In this document: in pieces, positions 3,444 through 11,371 of the stretch | How positions within the stretch are numbered: the stretch's first letter is position 1 | How the letters are laid out: every line of letters starts with the position of its first letter | Translations under genes and position numbers: made by a program | The notes under the pieces: model-generated | The model's input: only the letters and a program-made list of their open reading frames with translations | Told to the model about the DNA's origin: nothing | The model's database searches: none | DNA from: Escherichia phage HC6 | Strand: one strand, 5' to 3' | DNA length: 47,726 nucleotides | Sequence record: OL362274.1

Positions 3444-4856
3444 ATGTCAAAAATTGATGCACTAAACGCTTATATACGCGACCGCGTAGCGAACAATAAC
3501 CGGGCGATCCAGCAGCAACGGCTTTGCGCTGGCGGGAAGAATCTGGACCAGAAGCGAGAGTTCATGTGGAAGGAACTTGGCTACCCGCAGGAAATCACCG
3601 CCGAGATGTTCCGCTATGCCTATGAGCGACACCCAGCCGCCGCCGCTGGAATTAACCGCATTATTAATAAATGTTGGCAGAAATACCCTGAAGTTGTCGA
3701 AGATGGCGAGGATGACAAGAACTCAACGACATGGGAGCTGTCCATCAACGACATGATGAAGCGCGCCTACCCGTTCATCAAGGAGGCTGATAAGCGCAAC
3801 GCCATCAACCGCTATTCCGCTGTTATCCTGCAAATCCGTGACGGCAAACAGTGGAGTGAGCCTGTAGACATTACAAAAACCCGCCGCATTAAAGATAAAT
3901 CCATCGCTCGCTTTATTCCGGTATGGGAAGAGCAGCTACGCGTTAGCGCATGGAATAACGACGAAACCAGCGAAGACTACGGAATGCCTGAGATGTACGA
4001 ATATCAGGAAAGCGCCGTGGAGGACTTCGATAGCGATGGCAAGCCTGAGCGTTCCGTGCAGATTCACCCTGACCGCATCATCATTCTGGCTGAGGGTAGT
4101 TTTGACGGCAGTATGTTCAGTGGCATCCCGATGTTGCGTGCTGGCTACAATAGCCTTATCGACATGGCTAAGGTTTCAGGTAGTTCAGCAGAAGGATTCC
4201 TGAAGAATGCCAGCCGTCAACTGGCTGTTAACTACACGAAGGACAACGTAACGCCAGCAAGCCTTGCGCAGTCTATGGGTGTCGATATTGAAGAACTCAC
4301 TGACATCATGAATGAGAACATCGAAGCGCTAAACTCAGGCATCGACGCAGCTATGTTCACAATGGGGGCGGATGCAAAGGTGCTTGCCGTAACGCCAGCC
4401 GACCCGAAACCAACATGGGAAGTGGCTGCCAACCAGTTCGCTGCATCAATGGCGCTTCCGTTCACCGTCATTTTTGGTCAGCAAACCGGACGCCTTGCGA
4501 GTGATGAGGACAAGATGCAGGAGGCGATGACAGCCAAGCAGCGCCGCGAAACGTGGGTTGATTATGTCATCTCAATGTTCGTTGAGCGCATGATTCAGTT
4601 CGGCATTGTCGATAAAGCACCGGCAAATGGCTACAAGGTTAAGTGGGATGATCTGCTTGCCCCATCAGAGCTGGATAAAGCTGAATTGCTGTCCAAGCTC
4701 GCCACTGCGAACAAGTCCTTCTTTGATGCTGGTCAATCTGCACTGCTGACCGTCGATGAAGCTCGCGGCATGGTTGGCATGGAGCCAATTGAACTTGACG
4801 AAAGCTATCGCGAAGACACACCGCCGGAAGATGAAAATGAAGATACTCCGGTTTAA
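3444..4856 (+). CDS. portal protein
   Basis: 470 aa; between terminase and Mu F-like gene; acidic C-terminus ([11 protein letters not shown]); assignment by size, position and composition. Confidence 0.7.
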
Positions 4857-5787
4857 CGCCAGACTTCCGCAACCCCGCATATCACAGAGCCTGACAGACC
4901 CGTTAGGCGCTGCAACTCGCCTGTCAAAGATGGACAAGGTGATAACGCGCAAATACAAACAACTCAGGACTCGTTCGCTTGAGTTGTTTCGCACCATTCC
5001 GAGCAGTCAGACCAACGCAGAATCAAGTGGTCTGTATTTCTACGATTTCAGTAGTGCGCGTGCCGCTACGTTCATGGATGAGTTACAGGAGCTGGTTGAC
5101 GAGATTCTGCTGGAAGGTGATGATTTTAGTCATGGCAGGATGTGGGCCAATGTGTTCATTGGTGATGCGTATCAGGCGGGGACGCAGAAGGCTAACTCTG
5201 AGCTGTCAAGTCTTTCTCCGGTTTATGCTGAGCAGAGGCCGATTGCCACGATACTCTACAGTGAGCCTTATCTTAATCGACTGCAACTGGCGCACACAGC
5301 AGGATACTCAGACTGGCGCGGGTTGAGTGATTATTCCCGCCAGCAACTGGCATCTGTCATCATGGAAGGCATTGCGCGTGGTGCCAATCCTCGTGATGTT
5401 GAGGATGATATCGTCAAGCGTGTCGATGTATCTCACAGCTACGCAAAACAGATTGCGCAGACTGAAATAACCGGAACGCTGCGGCAGGCAAACAGACGGG
5501 AGGTTATTGAGGCGCGCGAAGAATTAGGTATTGAAACGGTTATGCTGTGGCAATCAGCATTAATGCGCACAACCCGCCAGACGCACGCGGCGAGACACGG
5601 ACTGTTTTACACGCCAGAAGAGATTGACACATTTTATAGCGAGAATGGCAATAGATATAATTGCCACTGCGCCCAGGTACCAACACTGTTAATGGATGGC
5701 AAGCCAGTCATTCTTGAGTCGTCACAGGAAAGGTTAGACAAGCAACGAGATGCGTGGCAATCGGCAAACAAAAAGCCCTCTAAGTGA
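4831..5787 (+). CDS. head morphogenesis protein (Mu F-like minor capsid protein)
   Basis: about 319 aa, resembles Mu F-like head morphogenesis proteins by recollection; start could be ATG 4831, 4837 (GGAAG RBS 6 nt upstream) or 4930; overlaps portal end. Confidence 0.75.
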
Positions 5788-5799
5788 GGGCTTGGTTTT
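5771..5799. terminator. bidirectional hairpin terminator
   Basis: GCCCTC / GAGGGC stem enclosing the head-morphogenesis stop codon; T-run on minus strand, weaker on plus. Confidence 0.45.
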
Positions 5800-5870: not shown

Positions 5871-6521
5871 TTAATCATCAAGTTTCACGCCGGGAATTTT
5901 GCCTGCTGCGATGGCTTCATAAATTAGCTTGGCCCCATCCTCGCGCTTGTAATCTTGCGCCACCATTTCTAATACCGCACAGATAGATTCAAGTACGGCC
6001 TCATGTTTCCTTTCTGCTTCTGTGCGTAGTGGTTTTAGGCTTTCCGGTACGAAGCAGCATGACCGACCAGCACCACCTTCATCCCAATAGCAAACAGCAA
6101 CATCGTTTCCGTCCGTTGTTGTCTTGTGCGCCACAACTTCCATTTCAGTGCCGGCATCAGGAATCCAGGCATTGCGGTATCCTAACTTTGGATTGATGAA
6201 GAATTCTACTTTTGCACCAACTGGAGGTAGGCCTTCGCCGCTCCATGTTGGCTTTTGTGATGCTGCGAGTGCGGATTCGTATTGGCTTCTAGTTACCATT
6301 GCCTTCGTACTGTCGCATGATAAAACAACATCATTATCAACTCGCCAGTATCCAACTAAACCCTTTCCTGTTCTGTGTCTCCAGCCAAATCCATTGTATC
6401 TTGGGTCATCATAACGCCAGCAACAGAAATAGCCGTCGGCATCTTGCGTAACCACCACCCAGTTTTCGTTCCACCCACCACGCTTAGGTAATTCTTGAAC
6501 TAACAGTTCGATAAGTTTCAT
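5871..6521 (-). CDS. hypothetical protein
   Basis: 216 aa; last gene of minus-strand island; no motif recognised. Confidence 0.6.
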   Translation of the reverse strand: MKLIELLVQELPKRGGWNENWVVVTQDADGYFCCWRYDDPRYNGFGWRHRTGKGLVGYWRVDNDVVLSCDSTKAMVTRSQYESALAASQKPTWSGEGLPPVGAKVEFFINPKLGYRNAWIPDAGTEMEVVAHKTTTDGNDVAVCYWDEGGAGRSCCFVPESLKPLRTEAERKHEAVLESICAVLEMVAQDYKREDGAKLIYEAIAAGKIPGVKLDD

Positions 6522-6522
6522 T

Positions 6523-6774
6523 TCATTCTCCTAGCGCTTTGTTGATTGCATCCTGTGCTGATTTAATCACTTCTGGGTATGCGTCATTCCAGTTTTGCTT
6601 ATACGCTTTACTGAGCATTTTCTGCAAAGCCTCCAGAAGCTCAGGTGCTGCAGCGATGACGTTGGCATCATCCTTATTGGTAACATCGCACACGAATTGG
6701 TCGCCATTACTATAGACCCCACCAAGTTCATCATCGTAATGCCACGACCCCGGGATTCCTTTAAATTCTTTCAT
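6523..6774 (-). CDS. hypothetical protein
   Basis: 83 aa from ATG 6774 (MKEFKGIPGSW...), GAGGT RBS; track ORF starts 6786 at GTG. Confidence 0.55.
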   Translation of the reverse strand: MKEFKGIPGSWHYDDELGGVYSNGDQFVCDVTNKDDANVIAAAPELLEALQKMLSKAYKQNWNDAYPEVIKSAQDAINKALGE

Positions 6775-6782
6775 AACCAACC

Positions 6783-6926
6783 TCACTTAATATATTCAAT
6801 GATTTCGCATTCACGCATCTGCACCAGACCAAATGGCGCAACCACTTTACCGCACGGACGAATTTTGATTTGCTCAAGGTTGAACATTCTGCGGCATCCT
6901 GTTTCATTGAATTTGACTATTACCAT
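6783..6926 (-). CDS. hypothetical small protein
   Basis: 47 aa (MVIVKFNETGCRRMF...); AAGGTGA RBS 5 nt before ATG; below track cutoff. Confidence 0.4.
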   Translation of the reverse strand: MVIVKFNETGCRRMFNLEQIKIRPCGKVVAPFGLVQMRECEIIEYIK

Positions 6927-6935
6927 GATTTCACC

Positions 6936-7319
6936 TTAAAAAATAATTAATGTAGGCTGCAATTCTTCTTCATACCAGGTCCAACCAATGCACTGACCTT
7001 CCATTGCGTCAATGTGAGGCTTTACCCAATCCAAAAATGCCTGAATCTCACCGCTATAGTTTTTGATATCGCTACGGCTGAAGATGTATTGCTCTTCGCT
7101 ATAGTCAAATTTTGGGCAACTATTAACTACGGATGGGTGATGGTAAAAGCTACAGCAGTTACCAATAGAATCCCAGCGCGGCAGTGTAAAAAATTCATGG
7201 TCAGGGAGCTTTGCTGGCTTGTCGGCACCAGCAAACATATACCGGATTACATCCATCACTTCCTTTGGCGCATCTCCCTTAATCTGACACTTAAGAACTA
7301 GCTCTGTGTACATTCCCAT
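6936..7319 (-). CDS. hypothetical protein
   Basis: 127 aa; first gene of minus-strand island; no motif recognised. Confidence 0.6.
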   Translation of the reverse strand: MGMYTELVLKCQIKGDAPKEVMDVIRYMFAGADKPAKLPDHEFFTLPRWDSIGNCCSFYHHPSVVNSCPKFDYSEEQYIFSRSDIKNYSGEIQAFLDWVKPHIDAMEGQCIGWTWYEEELQPTLIIF

Positions 7320-7340
7320 CTTTTATTCCTCACTGTTTGG

Positions 7341-7382
7341 TTGATGTAGATAATATGCACCACCACTCAATCTACGTCAACA
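7341..7382. promoter_or_regulatory. divergent promoter region with paired TCTACRYCA motifs
   Basis: TTGATGTAGATAAT (inverted copy) and TCAATCTACGTCAACA between divergent genes 7319 and 7424. Confidence 0.4.
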
Positions 7383-7423
7383 CCATTGTGATAGAATTAA
7401 TTATTATTTGAACAGGAGGCAGA

Positions 7424-7864
7424 ATGAAACTATCGCAACGCGGCAAAGAACTAATCAAGTCGTTCGAGGGTTTTGAGCTTCGTGCTTATCCCGACCCAGC
7501 GACTGGTGGCGCCCCGTGGACCGCTGGTTATGGTCACACTGGTGCAGACGTTAAGCCCGGAATGACAGTGACGCAGGAGATGGCTAATGCATGGCTGGAT
7601 GGTGACGTGAAGAGGTTTGAGGATGGCGTATCGGCGCTGCTAACCGCACCAACCACTCAGTCGCAATTCGATGCAATGGTGTCGTTGGCATACAACATTG
7701 GTCTTGGCAACTTCCGCAAATCAACCCTGCTACGCAAGCATAACGAGAAATGCTACACCTGTGCTGCCAGCCAATTCCTCGTGTGGAATCGCGCCGCTGG
7801 TAAGGTTATGAATGGCCTGACACGGAGGCGTAACGCGGAACGCGCTATGTATATGGGGCAATGA
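7424..7864 (+). CDS. endolysin (GH24 lysozyme)
   Basis: 146 aa; AGGAGG RBS; LRAYPDP, GYGHTG and LAYNIG motifs resemble lambda R / P22 gp19-type lysozymes. Confidence 0.85.
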   Translation: MKLSQRGKELIKSFEGFELRAYPDPATGGAPWTAGYGHTGADVKPGMTVTQEMANAWLDGDVKRFEDGVSALLTAPTTQSQFDAMVSLAYNIGLGNFRKSTLLRKHNEKCYTCAASQFLVWNRAAGKVMNGLTRRRNAERAMYMGQ

Positions 7865-8572: not shown

Positions 8573-8590
8573 TGGGGCTTGTGTTTAATT
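8557..8590. terminator. bidirectional rho-independent terminator
   Basis: AAAAAA-GCCCC-gtgat-GGGGC-TTGTGTTT; T-run on both strands; between convergent gene blocks. Confidence 0.6.
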
Positions 8591-8740
8591 GGTTTGCTCA
8601 GACTCTTCTCTCTGCTTCCACATCTGCTTCAGCTGAAAATAAGCATACGCCTCATCTCCATCTTTCGCATTGCGTTCCATTTTCTCACACCATGCCGATG
8701 GTTTTGGCGGCTCATTCTGCTGGCAGTGTTGTTGGCTCAT
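8585..8740 (-). CDS. hypothetical small protein
   Basis: 51 aa from ATG 8740; track ORF extends to 8803; overlapped by plus-strand ORF 8569..8790, so uncertain. Confidence 0.3.
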   Translation of the reverse strand: MSQQHCQQNEPPKPSAWCEKMERNAKDGDEAYAYFQLKQMWKQREESEQTN

Positions 8741-8786
8741 TAACAGATTCCTCGGCCATAGCTTCAACGATGCGTACCAGTGAACA

Positions 8787-9020
8787 CTAAAGATTAGGTG
8801 CATTGTAATTACCCGCCAAAAACAGGACGCTACCCGTGCTAATCAGCACCTGTTTCGCGTTTGCCTGTGACAGATTCTGCACGATGAATTGCGCTGTTTC
8901 TGTGCCGATTTTCAGCACTGCGCTGCCGTCGCTATTCAGTGATACCAGCTGTGCGGACGTGTCAGCAATGTTGGTAAAGTTCGCGTTTCGTTGCGCGATG
9001 GTGATATCGCAGAATGACAT
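8787..9020 (-). CDS. hypothetical protein
   Basis: 77 aa track ORF in minus-strand block. Confidence 0.5.
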   Translation of the reverse strand: MSFCDITIAQRNANFTNIADTSAQLVSLNSDGSAVLKIGTETAQFIVQNLSQANAKQVLISTGSVLFLAGNYNAPNL

Positions 9021-9022
9021 TT

Positions 9023-9235
9023 TTATGCTCCTGTGTTGAAGTGAATTTTGCCGTTTTCGCCATGTGTTGCCGGTTCGATTGTCACTGTGATTGTAGGCTC
9101 TCCAAAAGAAGGGATGTTGAACTGGAAGTCAATTACGCCAGCAACCATGCGTCCATCCTGATCGACAATCATACTTCTGCCATTAACTTGCTCAACATGG
9201 AGATACACTGGCTCGTCATATTTAGGTAGCGACAT
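9023..9235 (-). CDS. hypothetical protein
   Basis: 70 aa track ORF, tightly packed. Confidence 0.5.
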   Translation of the reverse strand: MSLPKYDEPVYLHVEQVNGRSMIVDQDGRMVAGVIDFQFNIPSFGEPTITVTIEPATHGENGKIHFNTGA

Positions 9236-9714
9236 TATTTAATCTCTCCATTCAGCTCATTAACAATTAACGTTGCATAGCCAGCAATATCTTTCCAGCT
9301 GTCATCATAGGTCGGGTCGCCATTCAGAATGCGCCCAATCTTGTGCTGAATCATGTCGAGCGCCTCGCGTTGACTTGGTGTGAGATTGTGCCAGCCATCA
9401 ACTTCGCGCATCACACCTTTCAACTCCTGCATAATTTCAGCGCCGTCCTTGAATTTGCCGTATCGGCTACCGCGTTCGGTGATGAGGGCTTCTGTTGGGG
9501 ATGTAAACCACATTTCCGCGCCGACCTCCGTAACATTCACTGGCTCACGATGGGCGATAACAATATCGCCAGCCTTTTCGATATCCTTCTCTCGCCCCGC
9601 ATAATCCGCGCTGAGGTAGTATATTTTGCCACTGGTTGCTGATTTCACAACAAGAACAGCATCTTCATGACCATTAAAATAATCAGCACTCCCCTTCAGG
9701 TATTTGTATTTCAT
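9235..9714 (-). CDS. hypothetical protein with conserved-looking C-terminal domain
   Basis: 159 aa; C-terminal SRYGKF...LTPSQREALDMIQHKIGRILNGDPTYDDSWKDIAGYA looks like a conserved phage domain I cannot name. Confidence 0.6.
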   Translation of the reverse strand: MKYKYLKGSADYFNGHEDAVLVVKSATSGKIYYLSADYAGREKDIEKAGDIVIAHREPVNVTEVGAEMWFTSPTEALITERGSRYGKFKDGAEIMQELKGVMREVDGWHNLTPSQREALDMIQHKIGRILNGDPTYDDSWKDIAGYATLIVNELNGEIK

Positions 9715-9896
9715 CTCACCACCTCAAATTTAATTTTCACCACCTCATCAGTTGATGCGCCATTCTCAACAACCCATTTATAGGCATCAAACCGGTCTTC
9801 AAAGACAATCATTCTTGACGGGGTGTCATCACCATCCCCATTAACATAAGAGACCGGTGCACCTCTGTCGTTTATTACTGTCCATCTTTCCATCAC
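9711..9896 (-). CDS. hypothetical small protein
   Basis: 61 aa; overlaps neighbours by 4 nt. Confidence 0.45.
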   Translation of the reverse strand: MMERWTVINDRGAPVSYVNGDGDDTPSRMIVFEDRFDAYKWVVENGASTDEVVKIKFEVVR

Positions 9897-10093
9897 TCGC
9901 CTCTCAATGTAACCTTGTTGCTTTCGTCAACATTAAAATTAGCCCGAATCAAATCATACATCTCATCCTTTGGCATATCAGCCAGTGCCACATAGCAACG
10001 GGCAAAGTAGCGAACATCACGGAGTGTCAGTGGCTGACGCTTCTCCACAATGCTGGTGATAATGTCCATCGGCTCGCGTCGTGGTCTTGGCAT
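9893..10093 (-). CDS. hypothetical small protein
   Basis: 66 aa; first gene after divergent promoter region. Confidence 0.5.
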   Translation of the reverse strand: MPRPRREPMDIITSIVEKRQPLTLRDVRYFARCYVALADMPKDEMYDLIRANFNVDESNKVTLRGE

Positions 10094-10120: not shown

Positions 10121-10165
10121 TTGACGTTTCTACATCACTTAGTCAATACTTATTGACGTAGATTG
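10121..10165. promoter_or_regulatory. divergent promoter region with paired TCTACRYCA motifs
   Basis: TTGACGTTTCTACATCAC and inverted TTGACGTAGATTG between divergent genes 10093 and 10193. Confidence 0.4.
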
Positions 10166-10450: not shown

Positions 10451-10645
10451 ATGGCGCATGACGAGATGTACGAAAAGTCGTTAATCCAGCGACTGAATGA
10501 AGTTGAACGCACTCGCGAATGGCTGGAGTGCGAGTTGCGAGAGGTGCGAAACCGACTGCAACGCAAGCGCAGTCAGCAGAAAGACGTTATCGACTGGTCC
10601 GGTGATGCACCTAAATTTAACAACATTGGAGAATGGTTGAAATGA
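10451..10645 (+). CDS. hypothetical protein
   Basis: 64 aa, charged, helical-looking. Confidence 0.5.
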   Translation: MAHDEMYEKSLIQRLNEVERTREWLECELREVRNRLQRKRSQQKDVIDWSGDAPKFNNIGEWLK

Positions 10646-10893
10646 GCGCACCACACATGCCAGTGATGAATGAGAACGGATTGCTTGAGTGCCCATGCTG
10701 CGCGTCCAGTGAAATTTATCTGGTTAAAACAGTAGGTGGCTGGAGTTATGTTGAGTGCGACTCATGTTTGCTAAAAACAGAGCATGGTAAGTCACCGGAA
10801 TTGGCAATAAAGACATGGAATCGTCGCAACGGGCACCTCTACACCGCAGAAGACTTCAACCAGGCAGCAGAGGACCGTGATTATGGACTATAA
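10633..10893 (+). CDS. Lar-family restriction alleviation protein-like
   Basis: CPCC...SSEIY...CDSC...AIKTWNRR matches my recollection of the Lar zinc-ribbon pattern; start 10633 or 10642. Confidence 0.55.
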   Translation: MVEMSAPHMPVMNENGLLECPCCASSEIYLVKTVGGWSYVECDSCLLKTEHGKSPELAIKTWNRRNGHLYTAEDFNQAAEDRDYGL

Positions 10894-11371
10894 ATCACAA
10901 ATCATGCGCGTGATTATCAATCATCCTGGTGCAACGCGCGCATACATTGAAAAGCATTGCGGAGGGAAGCATTCAAGCACCACGACGCATCGTCTGCATG
11001 AGATGCTTGCGCTTGGCTTCATTCGTCGCGAGAAGTCAGTGATTCGTGGCGGCAAATGGCAATATAAATATTTCATCTCTGATGATGCGGCTGGTATTGA
11101 TGATGCGATTAAGTGCCATTTACTTGATAACTCTGGCGCAGAGGTGAAAGAAATTAGCGCAGCCACTGGCATTGATTACCGAATCGTGAAAAGCCGCATC
11201 CGCATTATGTTTCATAACGGTGATGTGACGCGAAGCTATGACCACCACAAGAAGCTATGGCGCTATTCATGGCGTGAGCAGGAAGTTAACGTCAGCAACC
11301 TGTTCAATTCACTTCTTCGCAACGCAAGAGGTCAGCATGGGAAAAGCAAAACGCAAGAAGCAAGAGTATGA
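10883..11371 (+). CDS. putative DNA-binding protein (tandem winged-helix-like)
   Basis: 162 aa from ATG 10883; two HTH-like segments; inference only. Confidence 0.5.
   Translation: MDYKSQIMRVIINHPGATRAYIEKHCGGKHSSTTTHRLHEMLALGFIRREKSVIRGGKWQYKYFISDDAAGIDDAIKCHLLDNSGAEVKEISAATGIDYRIVKSRIRIMFHNGDVTRSYDHHKKLWRYSWREQEVNVSNLFNSLLRNARGQHGKSKTQEARV

Follow-up and report, generated by a model that had tools for sequence, protein, structure and literature searches.

A variable accessory operon within a conserved regulatory frame, flanked by head and lysis genes, in a Skatevirus-like Escherichia phage

Morons are independent promoter-gene-terminator units of lambdoid phages, a concept that comes from Hendrix and colleagues. 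The subject of the present analysis is a group of four genes on the minus strand of Escherichia phage HC6 (sequence record OL362274.1), lying between the head genes and the lysis genes at positions 5871-7319 of a stretch of 47,726 nucleotides (nt); this stretch, at its full length, is called the window. The window is 100% identical to Escherichia phage 6947 (ON637251.1, 47,726 bp; window coordinate = record coordinate + 23), the source of which is Houston wastewater. An earlier note on this DNA had taken the four genes for a single island with the placement and orientation of a moron, and for a candidate locus of anti-defence or host modulation. As in the morons of lambdoid phages, there is a promoter/terminator unit belonging to the locus inside a late-gene region, and the first gene (g127) is present in some close relatives and absent from others.

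The second kind of locus that invites comparison is the accessory region of phages, in which small, fast-evolving genes, mostly without a function so far, likewise lie between conserved flanks (Silas et al., bioRxiv 10.1101/2023.04.06.535777); no gene of the present locus is in the text supplementary files of that screen. As a type of locus, such variable regions are not new; the genome is public, and its genes were already annotated as hypothetical. What is new is descriptive: an architecture of frame plus cassettes extending over about 35 genomes, with junctions conserved at synonymous sites, and the membership of g127 in a very large, unnamed, cross-phylum phage family, which is confidently modelled and, in enterobacterial siphoviruses, is found repeatedly next to head genes and proximal to the promoter. 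The explanation that is modestly favoured for the whole is an accessory operon that runs leftwards at a hot spot of recombination, expressed early, with cytoplasmic products aimed at targets in the host or in competitors.

Thirty-five related loci were compared, 31 of them from IMG/VR (collected with the Mu-F protein) and four from GenBank relatives, all anchored on Mu-F, a head morphogenesis protein, and on the holin. At the amino-acid level the flanks are highly conserved (Mu-F 90-96% identity, holin about 97%), whereas the number of genes between them ranges from none (L010, in which there is a gap of 267 nt) via one (L027 and L031) up to seven (L013), and the island contents of all loci amount to 138 open reading frames (ORFs) in 24 protein clusters. 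Variable gene content between conserved flanks, the hallmark of an accessory region, is thus found here, and the comparison of presence and absence that the earlier note had proposed reveals a true presence/absence hot spot among the relatives, i.e., a site of gene swapping and recombination between head and lysis genes. The control elements around the genes have been retained: a pair of motifs, spaced 29 nt apart as in the window, persists in about 31 of the 35 loci, the control region up to the start of the endolysin gene is invariant among the aligned sequences, and nearly all loci have the hairpin of the terminator at the stop codon of Mu-F. A conserved regulatory frame therefore encloses a gene set that differs from phage to phage.

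Promoter/operator, terminator and the 47-amino-acid gene (g47) are backbone in nearly all relatives, and g127 alone is sporadic; thus, the island is not one imported four-gene unit, and the single island of the earlier note has to be given up. Between phages 6947 and HC8A on the one hand and ST1UNAM and ZCEC08 on the other, the locus differs mainly by the presence of g127. The comparison with morons holds up in part. The genes are accessory, as had been supposed, and the locus has a promoter and a terminator, but both are conserved backbone that was not imported with the genes. Presence and absence apply to g127, and the whole island is absent in L010, but g47 is near-core. Nor is the composition foreign, as that of a moron would be: the GC content of the island is 45.1% against a genome mean of 46.6%, and only the neighbouring structural and lysis genes are richer (50-54%). 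No match to the island was found by megablast in 5,426 genomes of E. coli, so that the island is no recent capture from a host or a prophage. Phage 6947 is a Skatevirus-like lytic siphovirus. Its nearest relatives are siphoviruses of Salmonella, Escherichia and Klebsiella with genomes of 45-48 kb, including the BASEL phages Bas77-81, which have been grouped as a Skatevirus cluster of O-antigen-dependent small siphoviruses (PMC11990801). As phages of this clade are handled as lytic isolates (PMC11990801), the classical logic of the prophage moron, i.e., expression from a prophage for the benefit of the host, presumably does not apply to them.

The four genes, named here after the lengths of their products in amino acids (aa), are g127 (127 aa, 6936-7319, a promoter-proximal sporadic insertion), g47 (47 aa, 6783-6926, phrog_21280), g83 (83 aa, 6523-6774, beginning with the ATG at 6774, phrog_1273) and g216 (216 aa, 5871-6521, the last gene of the operon). 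All are on the minus strand, as the earlier note had stated, and each ORF agrees with a coding sequence in GenBank (ON637251.1), where all four are hypothetical proteins. The intergenic gaps are 9, 8 and 1 nt, and a Shine-Dalgarno site (GAGG/AGGAG/AAGGTG), read from the sequence, precedes each start. For g83, an alternative GTG start four codons upstream, which would give 87 aa, was rejected, as this GTG lies inside the ribosome-binding site of the ATG. Four PHROG families were matched at E values of 1e-20 to 1e-64, all in the category "unknown function"; together with the many homologues, these matches imply that the ORFs are real genes rather than chance ORFs. The four tightly packed genes form one real operon. 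Three of the products are acidic and one is basic (isoelectric points: g127 4.8, g47 9.0, g83 4.6, g216 5.2). None of the four has a transmembrane segment or a hydrophobic segment comparable to that of the holin, and all are predicted to be soluble.

Upstream of the operon, the only good match to a sigma-70-type promoter is TTGACG-17-CATATT (7380..7352, minus strand), with 9 of 12 consensus positions; the calls of both this promoter and the terminator are at the level of a consensus scan. The ATG of g127 is 61 nt downstream of the start of the motif and has the ribosome-binding site GAGGA. The promoter is enclosed by a 12-nt inverted repeat, GTTGATGTAGAT-N18-ATCTACGTCAAC (7340-7381), which contains two copies of the motif TTGAYGTAGAT and is a candidate operator common to the island and the lysis cassette. 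In the window there are 13 copies of this motif against 1.8 expected, a number which no shuffled sequence reached, at positions that include 2000, 7341, 7370, 10153, 20158, 24556, 38170, 40812, 44752, 44769 and 47149. Most copies precede the first start codon of an operon by 40-60 nt, and several are paired, as direct or inverted repeats. As a plausible -10 element at 17 nt can be read for only some of the copies, TTGAYGTAGAT is perhaps not a plain -35 box; it may be the binding site of a phage regulator, overlapping promoters. A candidate for this regulator is a 162-aa protein encoded at 10883-11371 (plus strand), for which there is a weak match to a MarR-type winged helix (E 0.002, below the cut-off). 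A divergent promoter at 7341..7382 had been proposed. Its minus-strand half stands, but the plus-strand copy of the motif has no acceptable -10 hexamer; as read from the sequence, the extended -10 element TGaTAGAAT at 7389-7397 is the likelier rightward promoter for the lysis genes.

At the other end of the locus is a bidirectional intrinsic terminator (5773..5793, both strands), identified by terminator score and fold as the hairpin AAGCCCTC-TAAGT-GAGGGCTT. The hairpin has an 8-bp stem and a 5-nt loop, which holds the TAA stop codon of Mu-F, and T-runs on both strands; thus, the overlap of a hairpin and a minus-strand T-run with the stop codon of the head-morphogenesis gene, seen in the earlier note, is correct. 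Its fold energy is -15.4 kcal/mol on the minus strand (z = -4.05) and -15.0 kcal/mol on the plus strand, and it is predicted to end both the transcript of the head genes and that of the island. The exact hairpin AAGCCCTC...GAGGGCTT also recurs about 3-5 kb upstream of the Mu-F stop codon in many of the loci L007-L035; no such second copy is present in the first 14 kb of phage 6947.

Within this frame, g47 is the stable, near-core member for the clade. It is found in 31 of the 35 loci and in 145 phage records, with 64-94% identity and a clear pattern of conservation, and in some loci it is the sole gene of the island. Such constancy bears on the possibility that g47 has a part in the phage's own programme, perhaps together with the constant modules of g83 and g216, e.g., by regulating a switch at the shared operator, by timing lysis, or as chaperones of assembly or packaging encoded on the opposite strand. 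Clear purifying selection on a gene that is kept when all else is lost is what such a role would produce, and the strictly conserved inverted-repeat control region, common to the operon and the lysis cassette, as well as the position between head genes, are in keeping with it. However, L010 has no island at all and yet resembles a complete phage contig of 45 kb, no match to a family of DNA-binding, membrane, chaperone or structural proteins was found for any island product, and relatives can do without g127, g83 and the internal modules of g216. Such a role in the phage's own programme is on the whole unlikely.

In contrast to g47, the last two genes are mosaics, in which interchangeable modules are joined by constant segments. 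The product of g83 belongs to PF27050 (Phage_P22_Y8K6), an uncharacterised family of P22-type proteins which the precomputed annotation lists for this exact protein and for all of the 120 homologues listed; the assignment comes from that annotation, as the Pfam set scanned here was one without the PF27050 model. Homologues of g83 occur in P22-like, Klebsiella and other phages and in enterobacterial genomes. In the relatives, the slot of g83 is occupied by a gene of 83-122 aa, with an N-terminal part of one of at least four unrelated classes and a constant C-terminal part of about 36 residues (...LLSALQQLLEIYDDxSGKVWTTSSKRRALDNARAAVNKALGE; phage 6947 has a diverged version). Thus, in this clade, the N-terminal part of PF27050 is one of several modules carried on a clade-specific C-terminal module.

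The terminal gene of the g216 type, about 180-230 aa across the relatives, is present in most loci. Its product begins with a constant N-terminus (MKLIxLLVQELPKRGGW), followed by a hypervariable segment (residues ~19-72), a conserved linker (75-102), an exchangeable barrel of the Tudor/SH3-like type (~103-163), and finally a helical hairpin and the constant C-terminus IY(D/E)AIAAGKIPGVKL(D/E)D. In the first 18 codons of these genes, 93% of nucleotides and 88% of third positions are identical, compared with third-position identities of 57% for Mu-F and 75% for the holin and an identity of about 33-38% in the adjoining variable segment of g216 (the comparisons by codon position were ungapped and are therefore approximate). 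The DNA of the constant segments is, thus, more conserved at synonymous sites than that of the backbone genes. That recombination does occur between constant segments is shown by a deletion scar in L031, where an ORF of 36 codons (6571-6681) joins the beginning of the slot-2 product, MTKREVYQLF, to the constant g216-type C-terminus (IYDAIAAGKIPGVKLDD). The constant junctions could additionally encode a common docking surface.

A constant N-terminus of about 18 residues ahead of a hypervariable domain is also what might be seen if the products were packaged in the head and injected together with the DNA, like the internal proteins of T4, the N-terminus of g216 being the tag that targets them to the capsid. 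The position beside the portal and Mu-F genes would suit such proteins, as would the recurrence of g127-family genes beside portal/Mu-F in several lineages of siphoviruses. Nevertheless, transcription of the operon starts at a sigma-70-type promoter and leads away from the head genes, the N-terminus of g216 is conserved even at synonymous sites, which implies a constraint at the level of DNA, and the homologues of g127 in mycobacteriophages lie among replication genes. Packaging in the head is therefore extremely improbable.

The first gene, g127, behaves differently from the other three. It is present in only two of the 35 loci, as well as in phages HC8A, NX263 and LPST10, and always next to the promoter. 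It sits exactly between the conserved leader and the start of g47, and its 3' end provides g47 with a new ribosome-binding site; g127 is thus a mobile cassette between promoter leader and g47. Homologues were found in 82 phage records (Mycobacterium, Bacillus SPbeta-like, Clostridium, Caulobacter, Cellulophaga, Vibrio, Synechococcus and Myxococcus), with Microbacterium and Clostridioides as further hosts. An exhaustive profile search gave 2,055 cluster representatives at 50% identity, of which 1,365 had E <=1e-10. The family, which includes members in jumbo phages, is found only in phages, and almost all of its members are stand-alone proteins of 125-145 aa which match from residue 1. The family has a conserved N-terminus, MGMYTE; among the longer relatives checked, no informative domain fusions were found. 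About 18 positions, mostly polar or aromatic, are nearly invariant: G2, Y4, T5, H41, F44, R48, W49, S57, Y59, K86, N87, Y88, E91, F95, W98, G112, E117 and P122.

Copies with 77-100% identity to gp58 of phage Lockley occur in several otherwise unrelated mycobacteriophages (51-112 kb) and in a prophage of M. abscessus, and such near-identical copies in unrelated genomes are the signature of horizontal mobility. In Lockley the homologue lies among replication genes. Closer to home, genes of the family, 37-70% identical, lie on the opposite strand beside portal/Mu-F in Bas82 (Nonanavirus; L042 3501-3884), in the Jerseyvirus SETP13 (L043 3001-3369) and in Klebsiella phage MK54 (L044 629-1012), being promoter-proximal in these phages where a cassette exists. 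The recurrence beside head genes may reflect either a common permissive site or a functional link to Mu-F.

A gene so mobile, in a hot spot where modules are swapped, raises the question of exclusion, i.e., of products that block co-infecting relatives or satellites, with a diversity that reflects conflict among phages. Module swapping and a hot-spot position are typical of exclusion genes also, and genes for HNH homing endonucleases populate this neighbourhood in the relatives. Exclusion proteins, however, commonly have membrane or periplasmic signals, none of which were found in the island products, and a family with hosts as diverse as those of g127 is more likely to have a target that many hosts share than a phage-specific one. 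Exclusion of competing phages as the purpose of the whole locus is, thus, distinctly unlikely.

The structure of g127 was modelled with a pLDDT of 94 as a well-packed domain of beta-alpha-beta-beta-alpha-beta topology with an insertion, i.e., a ferredoxin-like fold. Against a library of viral structures the model matched only uncharacterised jumbo-phage proteins. Its topology is the one known from ACT domains, the C-terminal domain of NikR and dimeric alpha+beta barrels, and the best matches among solved structures are to NikR and proteins of the ACT type. The confidence and packing of this model also bear on the view that the island is mostly neutral mosaic filler, in which ORFs without selectable function hitch-hike at a gap that permits recombination. 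A content that is highly variable and can be zero, in which every family is of unknown function, would be expected of filler. On the other side, the ORFs are intact and have ribosome-binding sites, and residues of both g47 and g127 are strongly conserved over large evolutionary distances. Neutral filler is accordingly a very unlikely account.

In the accessory operon that is favoured here, host RNA polymerase would read the genes from the sigma-70-type promoter, probably early in infection, and the four soluble cytoplasmic proteins so produced would be dispensable for the building of virions and would act on targets in the host or in competitors, whether to take over the host, to counter its defences or to compete with other phages. 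The constant junctions would be handles for homologous recombination between co-infecting relatives, by means of which modules would be swapped. Given its compact ferredoxin-like fold and its nearly invariant residues, the most likely activity of g127 is the binding or modification of a small ligand, or of a target that very different bacteria share. For the role of the operon, counter-defence is plausible and is the leading guess. A bolder proposal, which is rather doubtful, is that the MGMYTE family is a new protein of counter-defence or host manipulation across phage groups, and that g83 and g216 are an array in which cassettes are shuffled; g127 could then be, e.g., a small-ligand binder or an enzyme with a ferredoxin-like fold, its gene recurring in first position behind an early promoter, and the junctions conserved in DNA could allow effector modules to be exchanged by recombination.

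Several points weigh against an operon directed at host or competitors. The early timing rests on a promoter match of 9/12. No product was found by sequence or fold searches to be like a known family of anti-defence, host-takeover or toxin proteins. Related phages, one of which has a homologue of the 127-aa protein, stay sensitive to restriction-modification systems, so that a broad anti-restriction activity is unlikely. The near-universality of g47 suits a housekeeping role at least as well as a role in an arms race. Finally, when ten further accessory genes of the same hot spot in relatives were scanned, no known function was found for any of them; thus, there is no guilt by association.

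Searches for function gave a consistent picture. Against Pfam, NCBIfam, PADLOC and PHROGs, the four proteins matched only PHROGs of unknown function, in agreement with the earlier note, in which none of the products had been recognised; among the PADLOC profiles of defence systems there was no family match at E values up to 1. Nothing significant for the island products was obtained from the PDB, either with single sequences or with family profiles, and g47 in particular had no similarity to any solved structure. The note had named as a refutation that the genes might be structural or assembly genes that happen to be inverted. Such homology was looked for among families of head, tail, scaffold, chaperone and packaging proteins, and none was found; nor did any product match a lysis family. 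No similarity to characterised anti-defence inhibitors was detected by sequence or fold (Pfam, NCBIfam, PHROGs, solved structures), and nothing in the analysis linked any product to anti-defence. In a scan of the locus with Rfam, no family reached its threshold. The protein motifs of the island, its PHROG identifiers and PF27050 were absent from the supplementary text of the accessory-gene screen and of the Acb4 sponge study and from the full-text literature searched. The pairing of a SUKH immunity protein (PF09346, SUKH-1/SMI1-KNR4) with a polymorphic toxin of the Mu-F type was rejected: the SUKH match was below threshold, and the Pfam match of Mu-F ends at residue 307 of its 343-residue ORF, leaving about 35 residues, too few for a toxin domain.

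In favour of the accessory operon, the stretch between the head genes includes at least one member of an anti-restriction family that is recognised as such. This gene (10642-10893, plus strand) encodes an 83-aa zinc-ribbon protein that matches Pfam Lar_restr_allev (PF14354) at 36.5 bits against a cut-off of 28.6 bits, and is annotated in GenBank only as hypothetical. It is 3.3 kb from the island, in the next operon with the TTGAYGTAGAT motif, which is on the plus strand and begins after the copy at 10153. The Lar gene is, however, outside the island, and none of the four island proteins resembles Lar.

Variable accessory operons are the usual source of new genes of conflict between phage and host, and the present one offers a natural experiment, both in 6947/HC8A compared with ST1UNAM/ZCEC08 and in dozens of relatives that have alternative modules in the same regulatory frame. 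As the family of g127 is very large, extends over phages of at least five bacterial phyla, is absent from Pfam and is confidently modelled, a functional result for one member would allow thousands of proteins to be annotated. The junctions, with their conservation at synonymous sites, are a concrete example of how the exchange of phage modules may be channelled. Should all of this fail, what is left is another set of hypothetical early genes. It is, in all, a reasonable experimental target that will not surprise a specialist, with one protein family worth testing, that of g127.

The genes around the island, assigned by Pfam and PHROG matches, are all on the plus strand: the portal gene (3444-4856) and the Mu-F gene (ending at 5787) on one side, and on the other the endolysin gene (7424-7864), followed by genes for a holin (DUF7940) and an Rz-like spanin (DUF2514). 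As the coat gene, according to the GenBank annotation, starts only at about 12.6 kb, the head module is broken by about 6.8 kb of non-structural genes, of which the island is the first block. Directly after the lysis cassette is a minus-strand block of six small genes (8585-10093), one of which has a weak match to DUF6378 (27.0 bits against a cut-off of 27.1 bits) and one of which is assigned to DUF8272 by precomputed annotation. Relatives have other genes at this position, including HNH endonucleases, and the block looks like another variable accessory region. The lysis cassette is itself variable: phages 6947, HC8A and Bas81 have a single 146-aa endolysin of the Phage_lysozyme family, the gene at 7424-7864 of the window, whereas most relatives have at this position two adjoining genes of the lysozyme type, of about 92 and about 154 aa (e.g., L002 3539-4271).

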